A stretch of 40,643 bases of DNA from Candidatus Nomurabacteria bacterium RIFCSPLOWO2_01_FULL_41_18 (GTDB taxonomy: Bacteria; Patescibacteriota; Minisyncoccia; Phycocordibacterales; UBA9973). A program made the position numbers and the translations under genes. The notes beneath the pieces were generated by a model. It searched no databases, had not been told where the DNA came from, and saw only the letters and a list, made by a program, of their open reading frames with translations. This document shows positions 923-40,643 of the stretch, piece by piece. Each line of letters starts with the position of its first letter. Within the stretch, counting starts at the first letter, position 1. The stretch covers positions 1 to 40,643 of the forward strand of contig MFUZ01000006.1 of the NCBI GenBank assembly GCA_001785865.1. The letters run 5' to 3'.

Positions 923-957
923 AAAAATGTTGGTCAACTTAAGAAAAGGAATTCAAA

Positions 958-1149
958 ATGAAGACAATTATACCAAATTGGAGTGATGTCAGTTTCGAAG
1001 TCGTCGTGGCACGTGGTTCGTTGAGGCGCCCTTCCGTTCTTTACGATGCGGGAATCAATAGGTGCCCTAAAGATCCTCCCTTCTGGAAACCGAATCCCGA
1101 TCCTCAGTTCGTGATTACGCCATGGGGATTGAGGATTGTACGAAAGTAA
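958..1149 (+). CDS. Small hypothetical protein (63 aa)
   Basis: Has its own promoter, AAAGGA 7 nt before the ATG, and a GC hairpin terminator at 1163-1201. Confidence 0.6.
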   Translation: MKTIIPNWSDVSFEVVVARGSLRRPSVLYDAGINRCPKDPPFWKPNPDPQFVITPWGLRIVRK

Positions 1150-3585: not shown

Positions 3586-3678
3586 ATGGCAAAGAAAAAA
3601 AAGCGAGCAGCAAAGAGAGGAAAGAGAAAGGCAGCTAAAAAAGGAAAAAAGCGAAAAGCTGCAAAGAGACGAAGATAG
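3586..3678 (+). CDS. 30-aa Lys/Arg-rich basic peptide (histone-tail/protamine-like)
   Basis: MAKKKKRAAKRGKRKAAKKGKKRKAAKRRR; below the ORF-track cutoff; followed by terminator AAAAAACTCCCC..GGGGAGTTTTTT (3692-3723). Confidence 0.7.
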   Translation: MAKKKKRAAKRGKRKAAKKGKKRKAAKRRR

Positions 3679-3779
3679 CATTTTGCTTTCTAAAAAAACT
3701 CCCCAAAAACGGGGAGTTTTTTTGTTTCTTGCCCCGTCCCGAGCTTCGCTCTGGTGCGGGTGTATGCTAATATATATTT

Positions 3780-6341
3780 ATGTCTTTATTTGGCAAAATG
3801 TTCGGTAATGAGAGTTCTAAATTCATTGGAAACACATCAGGAATAGTGGCTAAAATCAACGCTTTTGAAGCGGATATTTCAAAGTTAAAAGATGAGGATT
3901 TTCCTAAAAAAACAGAAGGGTTTAAGGATAGACTAGCAAAAGCAGAGAATAAAGAAGAAATTCTGAATGAAATATTGCCTGAAGCTTTTGCTCTAGTGCG
4001 AGAAGCTGCCAAAAGGAATTTGGGTGAGAGACACTATGACGTCCAATTGATCGGAGGTATAGCACTTCACAGCGGAAAAATTGCCGAAATGCGAACTGGT
4101 GAGGGAAAAACTTTGGTGGCTGTTCTCCCAGCATATTTAAATGCATTAGTAGGGGAAGGGGTGCATATTGTTACTGTGAACGATTATCTTTCTCGTATCG
4201 GGGTAGTACTCATGGGTCAAGTTTATAATTTCTTAGGACTCACTGTTGGGGTTATTAATTCTAATAATGTTTCTTATTTATACGATGCCACGCACAAAGA
4301 AGAAGACAAGGAACGAGATGTAGTCGGAGAATTTAAAGTTGTTTATGATTTTTTAAAACCTTGTTCTCGCAAAGAGGCTTATCAAACAGATGTGACTTAT
4401 GGTACAAATCACGAATATGGTTTTGATTATTTGCGAGACAATTTAGCCACTTCAGTGGCGGATTTGGTTCAGCGTGGACATTATTATGCAATTGTTGACG
4501 AAGTGGACTCCATTTTGATAGATGAAGCGCGTACCCCGCTTATTATTTCTTCGGCATCCGGAGATTCTGGAGATTTTTATATTAAATTTTATCAAATCGC
4601 TAAACAGCTCAAAAGAGATACTGATTATGAAGTGGATGAAAAATTAAAAGCTATAACTTTGACTGATGTGGGTATCACGAAAGCTGAACAACTTTTAGGA
4701 GTACAAAATATTTATACAGAAAAAGGTATTAAATATGTTCATCACTTGGAAACGGCAGTAAAAGCACAAGCTATTTTTGAAAAAGATAAAGATTATGTAG
4801 TAAAAGAAGGGGAAGTGGTAATTGTGGATCCTTTTACTGGGCGTCTTCAGCCCGGACGTCGTTGGTCTGAAGGAATTCATCAAGCCATAGAGGCAAAAGA
4901 GGGTGTAAAGATAGAAAAAGAAACTCGTTCATCCGGGTCTATCACTTTCCAGAATTATTTTAGATTTTATAAAAAACTTTCAGGTATGACGGGTACTGCA
5001 GAGACTTCGGCAGAAGAATTTCTAAAAGTTTATGGTTTAGATGTGATAGTTATTCCGACCAATCGTCCTGTTGTGCGTAAAGATCACAATGATTTAATTT
5101 TTCAAACTGAAAAAGGAAAGTTTCAGGCTATTGCCAAAAAAGTGAAAGAATTAAATATGAAAGGGGAGCCAGTTTTGATCGGCACTATTTCAATTGAGAA
5201 AAATGAACTTCTTTCTGCATACCTCAAACAAGAAGGCGTGCCACATGTGATTTTGAATGCAAAGAATCACGAAAAAGAAGGAGAAATTATTGCACAAGCA
5301 GGAAAAAGAGGTGCAGTGACTATAGCTACAAACATGGCAGGACGTGGAATAGATATAAAACTCGGGGGTAACCCAATAATCAAGCCCGAATATGAATTTG
5401 TGAAGAGCGTCGGTGGGCTTTTTGTTTTAGGAACAGAGAGACATGAGGCAAGGAGAATAGACAACCAGCTAAGGGGGCGCTCTGGTAGACAAGGAGACCC
5501 AGGTGAGACGCAATTTTATGTTTCCCTCGAGGATGATTTGATGCGAGTGTTCGGTTCGGAACGGATCAAGACTATGATGGGGCGTTTCGGTATACCAGAA
5601 GATCAACCTATTGAGAATAGATTTATTGGCAGGACGCTAGAAGGAGCGCAAACAAAAATAGAAGGTTTTCATTTTGACGCTCGCAAACACACGCTTGAGT
5701 ACGATGACGTGATGAATCATCAACGTAAAATTATTTACGAGAGACGTCAGAAAATGCTTCAGGCGGATAAGAAGGGTATCGAAGACCTGATCTTGGATGT
5801 GGTCTCTGGAAAAGAAGGTGGGGACTCCGCCAAAGGGGACGGGGCAAGCAAGATAGTCGAGGAAAAAAGGAAAAAATTAGGAGGAGAGGCATTCCTAGAG
5901 GTTGTCCGTCGCATAGCACTGTATACTACAGATACGCTTTGGATGGAACATCTTGAAGCGATGGATTATTTGCGTAGTTCGGTCAATCTGCGTGCTTATG
6001 GTCAGAGGGAGCCTATCGTCGAATACAAAAAAGACGGGCTTATGATGTTTAAGGAAATGGAAGCAACTTTCAAAGAGCAAGTATTTTCCCTAATCGGTAC
6101 TATACAAGAGCCTGCCAAAGCGGAAGAGAATGCGCCAAAGCAGACTTTAATCACGAGCCATACAGAGTCCTCAGAGCTCGGAGGAAAGAAGGACGCCAGT
6201 CTGCCCAAAACAGACCTAGATATTGGCCGCAATGATCCGTGCCCTTGCGGAGCTATCAATCCGGCTACTGGCGAAGTATACAAATACAAGAAATGCGGCC
6301 TCATAAATGCGCCACAGCACAGAAAGTCGTTGATTAATTAA
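3780..6341 (+). CDS. secA: Preprotein translocase ATPase SecA
   Basis: MRTGEGKT, IVDEVDSILIDEARTPLIIS, ATNMAGRG, RRIDNQLRGRSGRQGDPG, C-terminal GRNDPCPC. Confidence 0.99.
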   Translation: MSLFGKMFGNESSKFIGNTSGIVAKINAFEADISKLKDEDFPKKTEGFKDRLAKAENKEEILNEILPEAFALVREAAKRNLGERHYDVQLIGGIALHSGKIAEMRTGEGKTLVAVLPAYLNALVGEGVHIVTVNDYLSRIGVVLMGQVYNFLGLTVGVINSNNVSYLYDATHKEEDKERDVVGEFKVVYDFLKPCSRKEAYQTDVTYGTNHEYGFDYLRDNLATSVADLVQRGHYYAIVDEVDSILIDEARTPLIISSASGDSGDFYIKFYQIAKQLKRDTDYEVDEKLKAITLTDVGITKAEQLLGVQNIYTEKGIKYVHHLETAVKAQAIFEKDKDYVVKEGEVVIVDPFTGRLQPGRRWSEGIHQAIEAKEGVKIEKETRSSGSITFQNYFRFYKKLSGMTGTAETSAEEFLKVYGLDVIVIPTNRPVVRKDHNDLIFQTEKGKFQAIAKKVKELNMKGEPVLIGTISIEKNELLSAYLKQEGVPHVILNAKNHEKEGEIIAQAGKRGAVTIATNMAGRGIDIKLGGNPIIKPEYEFVKSVGGLFVLGTERHEARRIDNQLRGRSGRQGDPGETQFYVSLEDDLMRVFGSERIKTMMGRFGIPEDQPIENRFIGRTLEGAQTKIEGFHFDARKHTLEYDDVMNHQRKIIYERRQKMLQADKKGIEDLILDVVSGKEGGDSAKGDGASKIVEEKRKKLGGEAFLEVVRRIALYTTDTLWMEHLEAMDYLRSSVNLRAYGQREPIVEYKKDGLMMFKEMEATFKEQVFSLIGTIQEPAKAEENAPKQTLITSHTESSELGGKKDASLPKTDLDIGRNDPCPCGAINPATGEVYKYKKCGLINAPQHRKSLIN

Positions 6342-35058: not shown

Positions 35059-37800
35059 ATGCCACCATTAAATAGATTTACAACTAAATCAAAGGATGCT
35101 ATCAAAAAAGCTCATGAGCTCGCAATTGAGCGTGGGGTCAACCACGTTTCTTCGTTGCACCTACTCGCGGCGCTCCTTTTGCAGGAAGAGAGCATGGTAA
35201 ACTCCATCTTGGATAAATTGGAGATAGATACGATGCTCCTGACTGATTCTATCTTGGAGCTTATCGAATTGCCCGAAACGCGCAGCACTCTTTCTCCATC
35301 GTATCAGATCTATCTCAACCCTGACTTGGCGCAAGTGATAGAACAATCGGCCAAACTGGCAGAATCGATGAAAGATGATTTCGTTTCGACCGAGCATCTG
35401 TTTATTGCGATACTGGAAGTGACTTCCGAGGCGCGCGAAACTTTGGCGCGATTCAGGATTCACAAAGATTCTGTCATGAAAGTAGTGGAAGAATTGCGTA
35501 GCCAAAATATTACCGATGTGACCGAGCCGAAAAAATTTAAAACTCTATTAAAATTTACTCGCAATCTGACCAAGCTGGCGAAAGAAGACAAATTGGATCC
35601 AGTCATCGGTCGGGACAATGAAATAACGCGGATCATGCAGATACTTTCACGAAGGACTAAAAATAATCCTATCTTGATCGGCGAGGCCGGCACCGGGAAG
35701 ACGGCCGTAGTGGAAGGTCTGGCGCAGATGATCGTCAAAAATAATGTTCCAGAGTCTTTGAAAGACAAGGAACTTGTTTCGCTTGACCTGGGGCTTCTTG
35801 TAGCCGGTACAAAATATCGCGGAGAATTCGAAGAGCGACTGAAGAGTATCATGAAAGAGATCGAGCGCTCGGATGGCAAAGTGATCCTCTTTATCGACGA
35901 GATCCACACGATTGTCGGGGCCGGAGGCGCGGAAGGAACTATGGATGCTTCAAACATGCTCAAGCCTGCATTGTCTCGCGGAGAACTGCGGGCGATCGGT
36001 GCGACTACCCTACGAGAATATCAAAAACACATTGAAAAAGATCCTGCGCTCGCACGCCGTTTTCAGCCGGTATATATCGATGAACCGAGTGTTGAAGACG
36101 CTATCGCTATCTTGCGCGGACTCAAAGAAAAATATGAGCTTTTTCACGGTGTGCGTATTACCGACGACGCTATAGTTTCGGCCGTCAATCTCTCTGCACG
36201 CTATATCACCAACAGATTTTTGCCGGATAAAGCTGTGGACTTGATAGATGAGGCTTCTTCTTCACTTAAGATAATGTTGGAAAATAAGCCACCAGTTTTA
36301 GAAGATGCGCATAGAAAAATAATGCGTTTGGAAATAGAGAAAGAAGCATTAAAAAAAGAAATTGTTTCTTTGGGCGGGGAAACACACAAGGAAGAAAAGG
36401 AAAAAGCAAAAGAAAAAATTCACGAAATAAAAGACAGGCTCAAGGAAGTAGATAAAGAAATAGGTAATCTGCATGAAAAAACCAAAGAACTTGAATTGAA
36501 ATGGCAAAATGAAAAAAACATTGTAGTTGAAATTCGTGCGATCAAAAAAGATCTAGAAAGTTTGCGTCTAGAAGCCGAGAATGCAGAGATGAAGTCTGAT
36601 CTTTCCAGTGCTGCAGAAATAAGATATGGAAAAATACCCACATTAAAAAAAGAATTGGAAACAAAACTTCTAAGGTTAAAAAAGTTGCAAAAATCACGCC
36701 GAATTTTGAAAGAAGAAATCACCGCGGAAGATATTGCCGAGGTAGTGGCTCGCTGGACGGGAATACCGCTTACTAAGATGTTGGAAGAAGAACGTGAAAA
36801 ACTAGAGAAGATGGAACTCGAGTTAGAGAAGCGAGTGGTGGGCCAGAAGGAGGCCATAGGGCGTGTGTCAGACGTCATCAGACGTTCGCGCGCTGGAATC
36901 GGCGACCCAAATAGACCTATAGGTTCATTTATTTTCTTGGGTCCAACAGGAGTTGGTAAGACAGAGCTTACAAAAGCGTTGGGGCAGTTTATGTTCAATG
37001 ACGACAAGGCAGTTATCCGAGTGGACATGTCTGAATATATGGAAAGACATTCAGTTTCAAAACTGATTGGTTCTCCTCCCGGATATGTCGGTTATGATGA
37101 AGCGGGACAATTGACCGAATCCGTCCGACACAGGCCGTATGCGGTGATCCTGTTCGATGAGATAGAAAAAGCTCATCCGGAAGTTTTCAACATGCTTCTC
37201 TCGGTCATCGATGAGGGCAGGCTGACTGACGGAAAAGGCAGAGTGGTCAATTTCAAAAACACGATCATTATTCTCACTTCCAATATCGGTTCTCAATTCG
37301 TGGAAAAAATGGAATCGATCGGATTTTCGAACAATTCTAAGAAAACCGATTATGCCAACATGAAAGATAAAGTCATGGAAGCATTGAAGGACAGTTTCCG
37401 TCCAGAATTCTTGAATCGCTTGGATGAAATTATTGTATTCGATGTTTTGTCCGAGGAAGCGATAAAAGAAATAGTGAACTTGAGGATAAAAGTGGTCAGA
37501 GATCGCTTAGCTCTCAAAGGTATTGATCTTGAAATAAACGAAGAAGCTTTGTCTTATTTAGCAAAAGAAGGATACAATCCGCATTATGGTGCGAGACCAC
37601 TCAACCGTTTAATTCAAAATAAAATCTTGAATCCTGTAGCATCCTATATTATTTCAAATGGGGTGAAGAAAGGGGATATTGTTTCTGTGTCCGTTAAAGA
37701 AAACGGACTTCTAATTGAAACAAAAAAAGGCCCCGCCATAGGACGGGCAAGCAAAATAAAAAGCTCTATTAGTGTGCAGTCCAAGTCTAACGTGTTATAA
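35059..37800 (+). CDS. clpB: ClpB-type AAA+ chaperone
   Basis: [28 protein letters not shown], long middle coiled coil (AAEIRYG), [24 protein letters not shown]. Confidence 0.92.
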
Positions 37801-37938
37801 TCAAAATTATGAAGAAAATAAATATTTTAGAGAAAGTATTTCCACTTTAAATATTCACGGTTCATCTTATAATAAAAGAATTTCAGTTTTAGATGTTCGA
37901 GTGGAAAAACTCGAATCGAAAATATAATAATAAAATTT

Positions 37939-38418
37939 ATGCAACCACATCAACAACTGTACAGAGTCTTAGGGATTATATTCGGATTTACAATTGTGTG
38001 GAATATTTTTATTATTCTTGGATCTATTTTTGCTGCTGCGGTGTCACATACGCCTAAATTGTTCTGGTATGTATTGTGTGTTTGGATAATTATTATAACA
38101 ATTTGTTCCATTATTAAAAATAGAATTGAGTCAACTAATTACAAAAAAGGATCTCTAATTTTAACAATAATGATAGTCGCCGGTTTTTTACCAACATCCC
38201 TTTTCTTAATAATGCCTTCAATTATTGAAAATTATATTCCTAGTTGGGAAGCAGCGCATTGTGAGCAAATAGGGCAGACAGATAGTATTCCTCCGAGTGT
38301 GATAATGCGGTGTGATAATGGAGATCAGGTTGAAAGAACTTCAACACCCGAAGATATGAGAAGATTTTGGCAAGGAGGAGTAAAAAATACTCATTATCCT
38401 TACAGTTTTTTTTATTAA
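37939..38418 (+). CDS. Hypothetical membrane protein (3 TM)
   Basis: Three hydrophobic segments and a C-terminal Cys pair. Confidence 0.65.
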   Translation: MQPHQQLYRVLGIIFGFTIVWNIFIILGSIFAAAVSHTPKLFWYVLCVWIIIITICSIIKNRIESTNYKKGSLILTIMIVAGFLPTSLFLIMPSIIENYIPSWEAAHCEQIGQTDSIPPSVIMRCDNGDQVERTSTPEDMRRFWQGGVKNTHYPYSFFY

Positions 38419-38511
38419 AATTTCTTAATCATCATATGTTAGTGCAATTTTTTATGTTGCATGGTAGAGTGGTCAATTGTAATTTTGATTGTGCCATGTT
38501 ATTATTAAGTA

Positions 38512-39330
38512 ATGGCTAAACGCTGGACAAAAAGAGAAGAAGACAAATATCGTTCTGAACTTTTTAATCTTTATGTTAAACAGAATAAAAGTTTACGTGA
38601 AATTTCAAAAGTTTTAGGTATATCGGAACAAACAGTTTTTAAAAGATTGGGACGCTTAGGAATTAAAACAGAACCTAATCTGAAAAAGAATTACTTAAAA
38701 AAGCGAACTGATATAAAGATTCCAAAAAAATACTCTGAAGATCTAGCAGAATTCTTTGGTATTATGCTTGGCGATGGGCATGTAAGTCATTTTCAAGTTG
38801 TTGTTAGTTTAGGAACTAAAGAAGAAAAGTATGCAAAGTATGTTAAATTACTTATCCAAAGAATATTTAGTACAAATGTAAAAATTTCCGTTAATAAAAA
38901 AGGACACAGAGATGTTTATCTGGGCTCAGTAGATATAACGTCGTGGTTGTTGAAACAGGGTCTTGTTCACAATAAAGTAAAATCACAGGTTGATGTTCCA
39001 CGGTGGATATTTAGTAAAAATAATTTCACGAAACGTTTTCTCAGGGGTTTTTTTGATACTGACGGGTCTGTATATAAATTGAAATATGGTATCCAAATAT
39101 CTTTTTGCAACAGGTCTTTCCCAATACTTAAATCTTTACAATTGATGCTTAAAAAGTTAGAATACAGTCCATCAAGTATTAGTTTGTACAACATGTATCT
39201 TACAAAAAGAGGAGATGTGGAAAGGTTCTTTACAGAAATAAAACCATCTAACTTTAAGCATGTAAATCGATATTTGAGTTTCAAGAATAATTTGCGCCGG
39301 TCGTATAGTGGCAATTACACGACGCTGTAA
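38512..39330 (+). CDS. LAGLIDADG homing endonuclease with N-terminal HTH
   Basis: SLREISKVLGISEQTVFKRL (HTH); LAEFFGIMLGDG and FLRGFFDTDGS (two LAGLIDADG motifs). Confidence 0.92.
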   Translation: MAKRWTKREEDKYRSELFNLYVKQNKSLREISKVLGISEQTVFKRLGRLGIKTEPNLKKNYLKKRTDIKIPKKYSEDLAEFFGIMLGDGHVSHFQVVVSLGTKEEKYAKYVKLLIQRIFSTNVKISVNKKGHRDVYLGSVDITSWLLKQGLVHNKVKSQVDVPRWIFSKNNFTKRFLRGFFDTDGSVYKLKYGIQISFCNRSFPILKSLQLMLKKLEYSPSSISLYNMYLTKRGDVERFFTEIKPSNFKHVNRYLSFKNNLRRSYSGNYTTL

Positions 39331-39375
39331 ACGTCGCGGCTTCGGCCTCCGGGGGTTCGAGTCCCTCCCGGCGCA
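39294..39375 (+). tRNA. tRNA-Tyr(GTA)
   Basis: GCGCCGG/CCGGCGC; anticodon loop CTGTAAA; long variable arm. Confidence 0.93.
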
Positions 39376-39466
39376 CAAAACTTGTTGTTTTCTAAAAACT
39401 ATGTTATTATAAAGTAGCTTTTCGAAAGCTCTGATGTTTTTTTGGAGCTTTTTTATTTATAAAAAT

Positions 39467-39541
39467 ATGGAAATACGAAACCCCGAACGAAAGCCTTCGG
39501 CTTCATACGGGGCAGGTATAGCAATTAGTAAAGTTATATAA
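39467..39541 (+). pseudogene. Stranded duplicate of the typA 5' end with a palindromic insertion
   Basis: Translates as MEIRN-PERKPSASYGAG-IAI-SKVI-stop versus TypA MEIRNIAI. Confidence 0.75.
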
Positions 39542-39550
39542 ATATTATTT

Positions 39551-40643
39551 ATGGAAATTAGGAATATCGCTATTATCGCCCATGTGGATCATGGCAAGAC
39601 CACTTTGACCGATGCTTTAATGAAGCAAAACGGAGGTCTGCAGGATGAAGGAATTTCAATGGATTCAAACGCTCTCGAAAAAGAGCGGGGTATCACCATT
39701 TACTCAAAAAATACCTCTATCTATTATAAGGATACAAAAATAAATATAGTCGATACCCCGGGCCACGCGGACTTTGGTTCGGAAGTCGAACGGGTCCTGC
39801 GCGCTGTCGATTCAGTTTTATTGCTGGTAGATAGCGTCGAAGGGCCGATGCCTCAGACCAGATTCGTCTTAAAAAAATCTCTCGAGTTAGGCCTCAAGCC
39901 GATTGTGGTCATCAATAAGATCGACAAGCCTGCCGCGGAGCCGCATCGAGTGCATGATGAGATCCTAGGGCTTTTTTTTGAATTGAATGCAACCGAAGAA
40001 CAGGCGAATTTTGAAACTATTTACGCTATCGGACGCAAAGGACAGGCCTTCAGGCATTTAGATGACAAATCTGCAGATCTCTCTCCACTCCTCGATATGA
40101 TTTTGGAAAAGATTCCGCCTGCTTCGACCAAGCAAGACGAAAAAATGTCGGCGCAGGTCTTCAATTTGGGCTACGATAATTTCCTAGGCAGAATGGCCGT
40201 AATGAGAATTTATTCCGGTAAAATTTCTGCTGGAAGCACGATCGTCGTCAAAGGGGAAAATGGCACGCGCAAAGGCAAGATCACAAAACTTTTTTCCTTC
40301 GAAGGCATAGTCAGAAAGGAAGTGGAGTTTGCCACAGCGGGCGATATTGTCCTCCTCGCTGGAATTCCTGACATCTATATCGGTGAAACAGTCTGTGAAG
40401 ATGAGAGCGTCGAACCGCTTCCGCACATTGCGATCGATGAACCGACTCTTTCTCTGAACTTTTTAGTGAACGATTCTCCATTCGCGGGTAAAGAAGGAAA
40501 ATTTGTCACCTCTAGGCAAATAAAAGAGCGCTTGGAAAAAGAACTTGAAATAAACGTCGGGCTAAAAGTAGATTTTTCCCCGCCTGAAATAAGCGGGGCA
40601 AGCTCCCGACAAGGCCCGAACTTTTTCAAAGTGTACGGCCGGG
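39551..40643 (+). CDS. typA: Translational GTPase TypA/BipA (runs off window end)
   Basis: [68 protein letters not shown]. Confidence 0.97.

Follow-up and report, generated by a model that had tools for sequence, protein, structure and literature searches.

A probable intron-less LAGLIDADG homing cassette that replaces the tRNA-Tyr gene in a Candidatus Nomurabacteria bacterium

Results

Here, we describe a gene for a LAGLIDADG endonuclease that runs into the tRNA-Tyr gene of Candidatus Nomurabacteria bacterium RIFCSPLOWO2_01_FULL_41_18, a tiny groundwater bacterium with a genome of 750 kb in nine contigs. The window, i.e., the whole stretch of DNA that was analysed, comprises 40,643 nt (contig MFUZ01000006.1, positions 1 to 40,643). 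Upstream of the endonuclease gene lies a 5' stump of a second tRNA-Tyr. This stump is identical over 17 of 17 nt to the tRNA-Tyr of relatives that lack the gene, which we refer to as type A, whereas the functional tRNA-Tyr downstream has a D-arm of a different type, referred to as type B'. The stump, a predicted promoter, the endonuclease gene and the functional tRNA-Tyr are referred to together as the cassette, and the features of the locus are as follows.

38442..38458, + strand: remnant of the original tRNA-Tyr promoter (GTGCAA ... TTTTATGTT), from alignment to relatives; putative promoter function
38462..38482, + strand: 5' stump left from the displaced tRNA-Tyr of type A, reaching from the D-arm to about position 27-28; matches gene-less relatives at 17/17 nt
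38477..38511, + strand: predicted leaderless endonuclease promoter, with -35 TTGTAA (38477-38482), a 17-nt spacer and a TG-extended -10 TATTAT (38500-38505), from a scan and conservation
38512..39330, + strand: free-standing gene for a single-chain LAGLIDADG homing endonuclease of 272 amino acids, from the open reading frame (ORF), Pfam, AlphaFold2 and Foldseek
39294..39376, + strand: functional replacement tRNA-Tyr(GTA), type B', from ARAGORN (Rfam tRNA at 39294..39375, 52.3 bits)
39424..39452, + strand: terminator-like hairpin with a T run behind it and no earlier such site downstream of the promoter; putative terminator function

By sequence and predicted structure, the protein is a two-motif LAGLIDADG enzyme with the pseudo-dimeric alpha/beta fold of the solved members of this family. 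It matches PF14528 (LAGLIDADG_3) in two stretches (E 9e-15; 55.1 bits at a cut-off of 22.5) and contains the LAGLIDADG motifs LAEFFGIMLGDGH and FLRGFFDTDGSV. D88 and D184, the acidic ends of the LAGLIDADG helices, are invariant across 59 aligned orthologous sequences, and we take them to be the catalytic metal-binding residues. The AlphaFold2 model has a pLDDT of 92.9 and a pTM of 0.80. Its best Foldseek matches are LAGLIDADG enzymes; the matches include the TliVMA intein endonuclease (E 2e-11), I-Tsp061I (E 1e-9), I-AniI, I-DmoI and I-SceI, with structures of WhiA at ranks 6, 7 and 15, and a profile search of PDB sequences recovered the same intein domains. Residues 262-272, which are encoded by the tRNA gene, are disordered in the model (mean pLDDT of 55 for block 261-270; below 50 for residues 268-272). 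An N-terminal helix-turn-helix (HTH) at about residues 7-48 is weak, every Pfam HTH match being below its cut-off. The genome contains a single copy of the gene.

The initial annotation, made from the letters of the DNA, had proposed that the endonuclease gene is associated with neither an intron nor an intein, and this was borne out. Between 37800 and 39600, tRNA was the only Rfam family to reach E ≤ 1, which argues that no group I or group II intron is present; moreover, ARAGORN reads the tRNA as uninterrupted and the endonuclease ORF is by itself, with a promoter-like site of its own in front of it. A group I intron in the tRNA gene carrying a homing endonuclease was rejected because no ribozyme core was matched, the tRNA is not split and the stump lacks an acceptor strand. 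No integrase ORF is present among the immediate neighbours of the cassette, i.e., clpB, a 159-amino-acid ORF without a Pfam family and typA; this negative covers these three ORFs and not the remainder of the window.

ARAGORN and the Rfam tRNA call confirm that the endonuclease ORF extends 37 nt into the tRNA-Tyr gene, as had been read from the sequence, and that its stop codon TAA (39328-39330) covers the anticodon, coinciding with anticodon-loop positions 35-37. The tRNA has the D-arm TCGTATAGTGGCAATTACA and the T-loop TTCGAGTCC. It is the only tRNA-Tyr among the 42 tRNAs of the genome and, therefore, presumably essential. Compensatory changes in the acceptor stem are seen among orthologous loci.

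The upstream piece, which had been described as a decayed tRNA-like fragment, is a real remnant of a displaced tRNA-Tyr, as indicated by its perfect match and by its colinearity with empty sites. First, the 17-mer TGGTAGAGTGGTCAATT at 38462-38478 is what gene-less relatives in the genus have at positions 8-24 of their tRNA-Tyr, which reads GCGTCGG-TGGTAGAGTGGTCAATT-AC... Allowing ≤3 mismatches, it has two sites in the window versus 0.05 expected, and two matches were obtained in 0 of 100 shuffles; in the genome it is otherwise unique, with a single near-copy in clpB. Second, the segment directly upstream (38442..38458) aligns with AGATGCAAAAA..TTTTATGTTA, the element found directly 5' of tRNA-Tyr in empty-site relatives. 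The same element precedes the stump in two orthologous loci, L022 and L023. Third, in L022, in which the endonuclease is 80% identical, the upstream region is colinear with 11 loci that have an empty site. The shared stretch covers the promoter-like element of the tRNA, its acceptor strand and its D-arm and ends at about position 27-28, beyond which the sequences diverge. In the window genome, the acceptor strand of the stump has decayed, and a deletion of ~18 nt before the stump shortens the old promoter remnant. The near-copy in clpB (37236-37252; 15 of 16) was considered as a second stump and rejected: it codes for GRVVNF, and its synonymous sites vary freely in the genus clpB genes examined.

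Orthologous loci were collected in a wide scan with one genome per species (119 relatives; 80 loci kept), in which 66 loci encode endonucleases with 46-81% identity. At 36 of these 66 loci, the 100 nt ahead of the ATG contain the D-arm 16-mer of type A at ≤4 mismatches, versus 0/63, 0/66 and 1/66 windows in the controls, and in 26 of the 36 this motif lies 47-49 nt from the ATG. Of stump and functional tRNA at the same locus, it is the stump that resembles type A more in 44 of 62 cases; the two are equal in 6, and the functional tRNA is the nearer one in 12. A full stump in which the acceptor strand is retained occurs at some loci, e.g., L113, L077, L078 and L108.

The end of the stump overlaps a promoter-like site, TTGTAA-17-TATTAT (38477-38505), with 6 nt between its end and the ATG. 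By itself, the promoter scan was not significant (9 sites versus 5.4 +/- 2.1 in shuffles). The leaderless promoter predicted in the initial annotation is conserved in register at 18 loci, with the consensus AGAGtgGTCAATTGCaA-N17-TATnAT-6 nt-ATG, and this fixed register argues that the end of the stump supplies the -35 hexamer, which is TTGCAA in orthologues. From this arrangement, the endonuclease message is probably leaderless. On the + strand, no terminator-like site is present in 38512-39376, the first being the one after the tRNA, suggesting that the endonuclease gene and the tRNA are co-transcribed.

The gene order clpB - [gene] - tRNA-Tyr - (typA) is common to filled and empty genomes of the genus. 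Close orthologues of the endonuclease were found in 5 of 101 genus genomes. One genome flagged as unpublished, G076, is presumably among these 101 and enters only through such tallies; none of our claims depends on it. We typed the clpB-linked regions of 60 genus genomes and of the window (61 loci). Type A was found at 41 of the 61 loci, none of which has the gene at the site, while all five carriers (G000, G062, G054, G008 and G116; 5/61) have type B. Thus, as anticipated in the initial annotation, the tRNA-Tyr at empty sites starts like the remnant. Type B without the gene accounts for a further 5 of the 61 loci, type B' with a second ORF family for one (G085) and a third tRNA-Tyr type for two (G053 and G014, the latter with the second ORF family); in the remaining 7, the stretch contained no tRNA-Tyr that could be found.

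Type B differs from type A throughout the gene, i.e., in the D-arm, the variable arm and the T-loop (TTCGAGTCC versus TTCGAATCC), which argues that the replacement normally concerns the entire tRNA and not just its 5' half. The tRNA of the window itself is a mosaic, matching G085 at every one of positions 1-45 and differing from it at 11 of the other 40, which indicates that a 5' module was exchanged at least once. The earlier proposal that the element supplies a variant 5' half needs correction for the genus, in which the whole tRNA differs between filled and empty sites.

In a maximum likelihood tree of clpB (61 rows), the five carriers are scattered, and five changes are needed to explain their distribution; well-supported branches force at least four of these. 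The sisters of carriers include type A genomes: G116 pairs with G012 (support 100), G054 with G115 (94) and G062 with G013 and G018 (92). If the gene had simply been lost, type B and not type A would remain, and repeated gain is therefore the simpler reading of this pattern. The type B genomes that lack the gene agree with a stage of loss. In two of them, G114 and G096, the usual tRNA promoter directly precedes a type B tRNA and the gene is absent. Such an arrangement would be expected if the stump had recombined with the new 5' end, both of which contain GCGTCGGT.

We also looked for an empty allele in the same population among the contigs of four DNA runs. Over 37500-40300, these gave only short pieces identical to the window and no empty-site allele, and were uninformative either way; a joint of 38778 to 39293 has low support (one contig, side 28, likeness threshold 88) and most likely derives from a different organism. 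Of the 20 runs listed as containing this DNA, none is an RNA run.

Beyond the genus, the association with tRNA-Tyr is found in many lineages of Patescibacteria: 60 of the 66 orthologous loci abut tRNA-Tyr within -14..+54 nt. In 48 of these 60, the ORF ends inside tRNA-Tyr. The other six loci comprise three cut by contig ends, two with broken ORFs (L103 and L114), as expected from the life cycle of homing genes, and one that lies 140 nt from tRNA-Thr. The idea that the stop codon in the anticodon is a designed feature was rejected: the ORFs overlap the tRNA by 6, 10, 15, 18, 22, 26, 31, 37/38 or 54 nt or stop 2-14 nt short of it, so the position of the stop codon follows from the reading frame and the tRNA sequence.

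Within the genus, some of the more distant homologues abut tRNA-Ser (TGA, GCT and GGA) and tRNA-Gln, and others follow tRNA-Leu(CAA) and tRNA-Met; in the wide scan, homologues likewise abut several tRNA-Ser isoacceptors. In two tRNA-Gln loci of the genus (L036 and L038), a tRNA-Gln-like 5' stump (..GATCGTCTAATGGTAGGAAATATGAT..) lies ~45 nt before the ATG and runs into a TG-extended -10. These tRNA-Gln loci have the same architecture as the tRNA-Tyr loci with an enzyme of a different clade. Four homologues in DPANN archaea (L123, L124, L127 and L128; Woesearchaeota and Pacearchaeota) have 32-35% identity and end 0-15 nt into tRNA-Gln, and thus the habit of abutting tRNA genes spans the divide between bacteria and archaea.

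Several further observations concern the tRNAs at these loci and the ORFs beside them. The functional tRNA-Tyr of L077, L085, L087 and L088 has an odd GC-rich D-arm, GTAGACCCGTAGGGGGCGGGG, which is one among several very different variants beside this endonuclease family. Upstream of the endonuclease genes linked to tRNA-Ser(GCT) in L028, L030, L031, L032, L034 and L047 lies a divergently oriented, well-formed type II tRNA (about 956-1062, minus strand), for which ARAGORN reports the anticodon ACT (loop TTACTAA), i.e., an unusual A34 serine tRNA that is conserved in six genomes. The second ORF family occupies the same site and also reads into the tRNA: L140 (G085; 3602-4261), L180 (G014) and L003 (891-1517). 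Its proteins have about 210-220 amino acids, an N-terminal HTH and the motifs YWAEGYK..ANSDP. Against Pfam, two members gave no family (L140) and only a weak HTH below the cut-off (L003), and against the endonuclease profile hhalign gives a weak match (probability 57%, E 1e-4). In G085, the ORF ends at the anticodon TAA with the tail ...RRSYSGNYTTL, the same as that of the window protein; the remnant ATTGCAACAG is kept and TTGCAA-17-TATAAT precedes the ATG.

Elsewhere in the window, the 159-amino-acid ORF (37939-38418) is hydrophobic, has no Pfam match and lies between clpB and the stump; this position is empty in most relatives, in which the tRNA promoter is directly 3' of clpB. ARAGORN did not find a tRNA-Asp among the 42 tRNAs although the genome is rated 100% complete; the tRNA-Asp gene may be interrupted, unusual or unassembled.

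Discussion

Here, we identify what is likely an intron-less LAGLIDADG homing cassette at tRNA-Tyr, consisting of the 5' stump of the old tRNA, a promoter, an endonuclease gene and a replacement tRNA. What the comparisons establish is how the locus is built, that it is homologous to empty sites, that gene and tRNA type go together, that carriers are scattered in the genus and that the arrangement is widely conserved beyond it. From 5' to 3', the cassette comprises the resident promoter with the first ~27 nt of the resident tRNA as a dead stump, a predicted leaderless promoter, the endonuclease gene and a complete tRNA. This functional tRNA-Tyr, of a different sequence type, follows without a spacer, the reading frame ending within it.

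We suggest that the enzyme cuts the common type A tRNA-Tyr near the boundary between the D-arm and the anticodon stem; a cut near the insertion is proposed because the junction lies at about tRNA position 27-28. The break would then be repaired from a cassette-bearing copy, in that way copying in the endonuclease gene together with the replacement tRNA. In most cases the whole tRNA gene would be exchanged and sometimes only a 5' module. The D-arm of the replacement differs from the target and, as such, would presumably remain uncut. The outcome of such an exchange would be that the single essential tRNA-Tyr is kept without RNA or protein splicing.

Several points weigh against this scenario or limit it. 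First, type B is found without the gene in five genus genomes (G114, G096, G097, G094 and G108) and in gene-less genomes from other families (L005 and L019), so that the arrival of type B with the cassette is an argument from parsimony and not a proof. Second, the clpB tree is built from one gene beside the locus with a quick search, and 25 of its 58 inner branches are unresolved. Third, the right-hand edge of the exchanged segment is not definable from the alignments of G116/G012, G054/G115 and G008/G010, whose non-coding flanks have diverged or been rearranged too far, and the Fisher p of 1e-4 for the mosaic in the window is optimistic because the breakpoint was picked after looking. Fourth, at 5 of 62 loci (L074, L081, L084, L110 and L111), the functional tRNA has a type-A-like D-arm (≤4/16 mismatches), which does not fit a simple rule of resistant D-arms unless specificities differ or these enzymes are dead. 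Fifth, the ORF stops 2-14 nt before the tRNA in 12 of 60 orthologues, and a stop codon inside the tRNA is thus dispensable. Finally, the stump is kept beside enzymes that have diverged to ~50% identity. Because the stump has a functional reason to be conserved, i.e., its role as -35, its conservation is better explained by this role than by a fresh insertion each time; hence, it is no evidence of recent insertion and says little on recent mobility.

This last point leads to the alternative that survives best, namely that the locus goes back to one ancient insertion, followed by vertical descent and many losses, and that the gene is no longer mobile while its stump survives as a promoter. The fixed register of stump and promoter across distant lineages is in line with this idea, as is the rough parallel between the identities of the endonucleases to that of the window (80, 78, 68 and 63%) and those of the corresponding clpB (92, 90, 81 and 82%); moreover, gene-less type B alleles indicate that losses do happen. 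However, simple loss would leave type B, whereas the sisters of carriers have type A with a difference over the whole gene, and the clpB tree forces at least four changes for five carriers. Similarly, the ORF is intact with catalytic residues that are invariant in 59 aligned sequences, and the mosaic tRNA shares its 5' part with G085. Altogether, we consider an immobile relic unlikely.

It is still less probable, and in our view very much so, that the protein is a domesticated LAGLIDADG DNA-binding protein, i.e., a WhiA-like regulator or a tRNA-linked factor for transcription of tRNA-Tyr rather than a mobile nuclease. Such a role would agree with the combination of an HTH and a LAGLIDADG fold, with WhiA among the Foldseek matches and with the position of the gene on the promoter of an essential tRNA, where the stump could be an operator. 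However, a housekeeping regulator would not be so patchy (5 of 101 genomes of the genus), both catalytic aspartates are invariant, broken copies occur (L103 and L114) and the displaced stump is a sign of insertion. Moreover, the HTH of WhiA is C-terminal while that of the window protein is N-terminal. Chance neighbourhood, in which an ordinary endonuclease gene happens to lie before a stop-poor, GC-rich tRNA and the 17-mer is a chance string, accounts for stop positions set by frame and tRNA sequence alone (overlaps of 6, 10, 15, 31, 37...) and for the similar 16-mer that arises in clpB by coding coincidence, but it is refuted by the 17/17 match in the expected place with colinear flanks in L022 and the empty sites, by the 60 of 66 orthologues that abut tRNA-Tyr and by the near-empty controls for the stump motif, and we regard it as negligible.

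The homing cassette that we favour has its closest counterpart among the systems considered here in fungal mitochondria. In the Glomus genes atp6, atp9, cox2 and nad3, mobile ORFs (mORFs), which encode an endonuclease that is often of the LAGLIDADG type, are inserted in the host gene, as described in PMC3630166, which also cites an atp6 mORF of Allomyces macrogynus. The mORF supplies a divergent duplicate of the C-terminal end of the gene, and the native end is left behind as a dead copy that is closer to the alleles of relatives than the inserted end; the ORF is sometimes in phase (PMC3630166). The locus described here similarly has an ORF inside a host gene and a divergent replacement that keeps the gene functional, and its displaced stump is of the type of its relatives (17/17 type A) while the functional D-arm is of type B'. 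However, the two differ in four respects. The host gene here is a bacterial tRNA gene, i.e., an RNA gene, and not a mitochondrial protein gene; the polarity is mirrored, with the 5' end duplicated and the stump upstream; the stump is co-opted as the -35 of the endonuclease promoter; and usually the whole tRNA is exchanged. Thus, the cassette works like an mORF and yet lies outside the set of mORFs that have been described.

The SegF and SegB endonucleases of T-even phages provide a second comparison. They home without an intron by means of a double-strand break and co-conversion of neighbouring markers, and SegB, of the tRNA gene region of T4, is reported to cut within tRNA-containing sequences (PMC13096335). 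As in the window, their genes lie outside introns and inteins. By contrast, Seg enzymes are GIY-YIG proteins encoded in intergenic positions without overlap with a tRNA, whereas the enzyme here is a LAGLIDADG protein whose gene overlaps the tRNA; a stump of the target gene or a rebuilt target is not described for Seg in the text consulted, whereas both are present here; and Seg homing occurs upon phage co-infection, whereas the cassette resides in a cellular chromosome. In bacteria of the Candidate Phyla Radiation (CPR), LAGLIDADG genes are described in insertions in rRNA genes (PMC11270868). The word tRNA is absent from the main text of that report, and the sole mention of LAGLIDADG in PMC7143001 concerns a 23S intron.

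Compared to I-Tsp061I, I-DmoI, I-AniI and TliVMA, the enzyme has the same fold, two LAGLIDADG motifs and the conserved acidic residues. It differs from intron- and intein-encoded LAGLIDADG enzymes in having neither a ribozyme nor an intein and in having an extra N-terminal HTH; moreover, the host gene is spared damage because it is replaced, and not because an insert is spliced out. Islands and prophages driven by integrases also land in tRNA genes and carry a copy of the part that they displace, so that the tRNA stays functional. Their integrases are of the tyrosine type, and the part that they duplicate is the 3' end, in the form of short attachment repeats. By contrast, it is the 5' part that is displaced here, and the replacement differs in sequence. 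We found no description of LAGLIDADG genes that abut or overwrite tRNA genes of CPR bacteria in a search of literature outside subscription-only papers and supplements. Thus, the arrangement, which recurs in many related genomes, seems to be undescribed.

The position of the tRNA downstream in the transcription unit of the endonuclease may couple the two, because silencing the gene would probably cost the host its tRNA. In addition, cleavage by RNase P at 39294 would remove the stop codon from the endonuclease message, and such a stop-less message could keep the level of the enzyme low; tmRNA could deal with this message. The genome does encode an RNase P RNA (108.5 bits) as well as a tmRNA (113.6 bits), which makes such an effect possible. 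The RNase P idea is not general, since the stop codon precedes the tRNA in the 12 orthologues mentioned above.

More tentatively, and with rather more doubt than confidence, we envisage the tRNA genes of CPR and DPANN organisms as a battlefield of intron-less LAGLIDADG cassettes, with clade-specific overwriting and self-protection. Each clade may overwrite one tRNA gene with its own resistant allele, and horizontal movement of tRNA genes and diversification of D-arms may be driven by such cassettes. Self-protection may have three parts: the stump may be reused as a promoter and possibly as an operator for binding by the HTH of the enzyme or to a half-site; the sole tRNA-Tyr may lie downstream such that silencing of the endonuclease hits the tRNA; and RNase P may trim the stop codon such that the toxic enzyme is made from rare unprocessed transcripts alone. 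The second, unrelated-looking ORF family may compete for the same site and share the 45-nt 5' module of the tRNA.

To our knowledge, homing endonucleases have been thought to persist in essential genes solely by means of self-splicing introns or inteins. The cassette appears to be a third solution, for an RNA gene, in which the element brings a replacement gene. For annotation, the overlap of ORF and tRNA and the stump are real features and not errors of assembly or gene calling. If the enzyme cleaves as suggested, the cassette would be a natural bacterial system that cuts the old allele and pastes a resistant one, following the logic of engineered cleave-and-rescue gene drives, and the family would offer new LAGLIDADG scaffolds with a known target of 20-odd bp in a tRNA gene. 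Cleavage would also explain the odd tRNA-Tyr types and the tRNA pseudo-fragments in Patescibacteria, and it would mean that tRNA genes in these bacteria are exchangeable horizontally as the cargo of a selfish gene.

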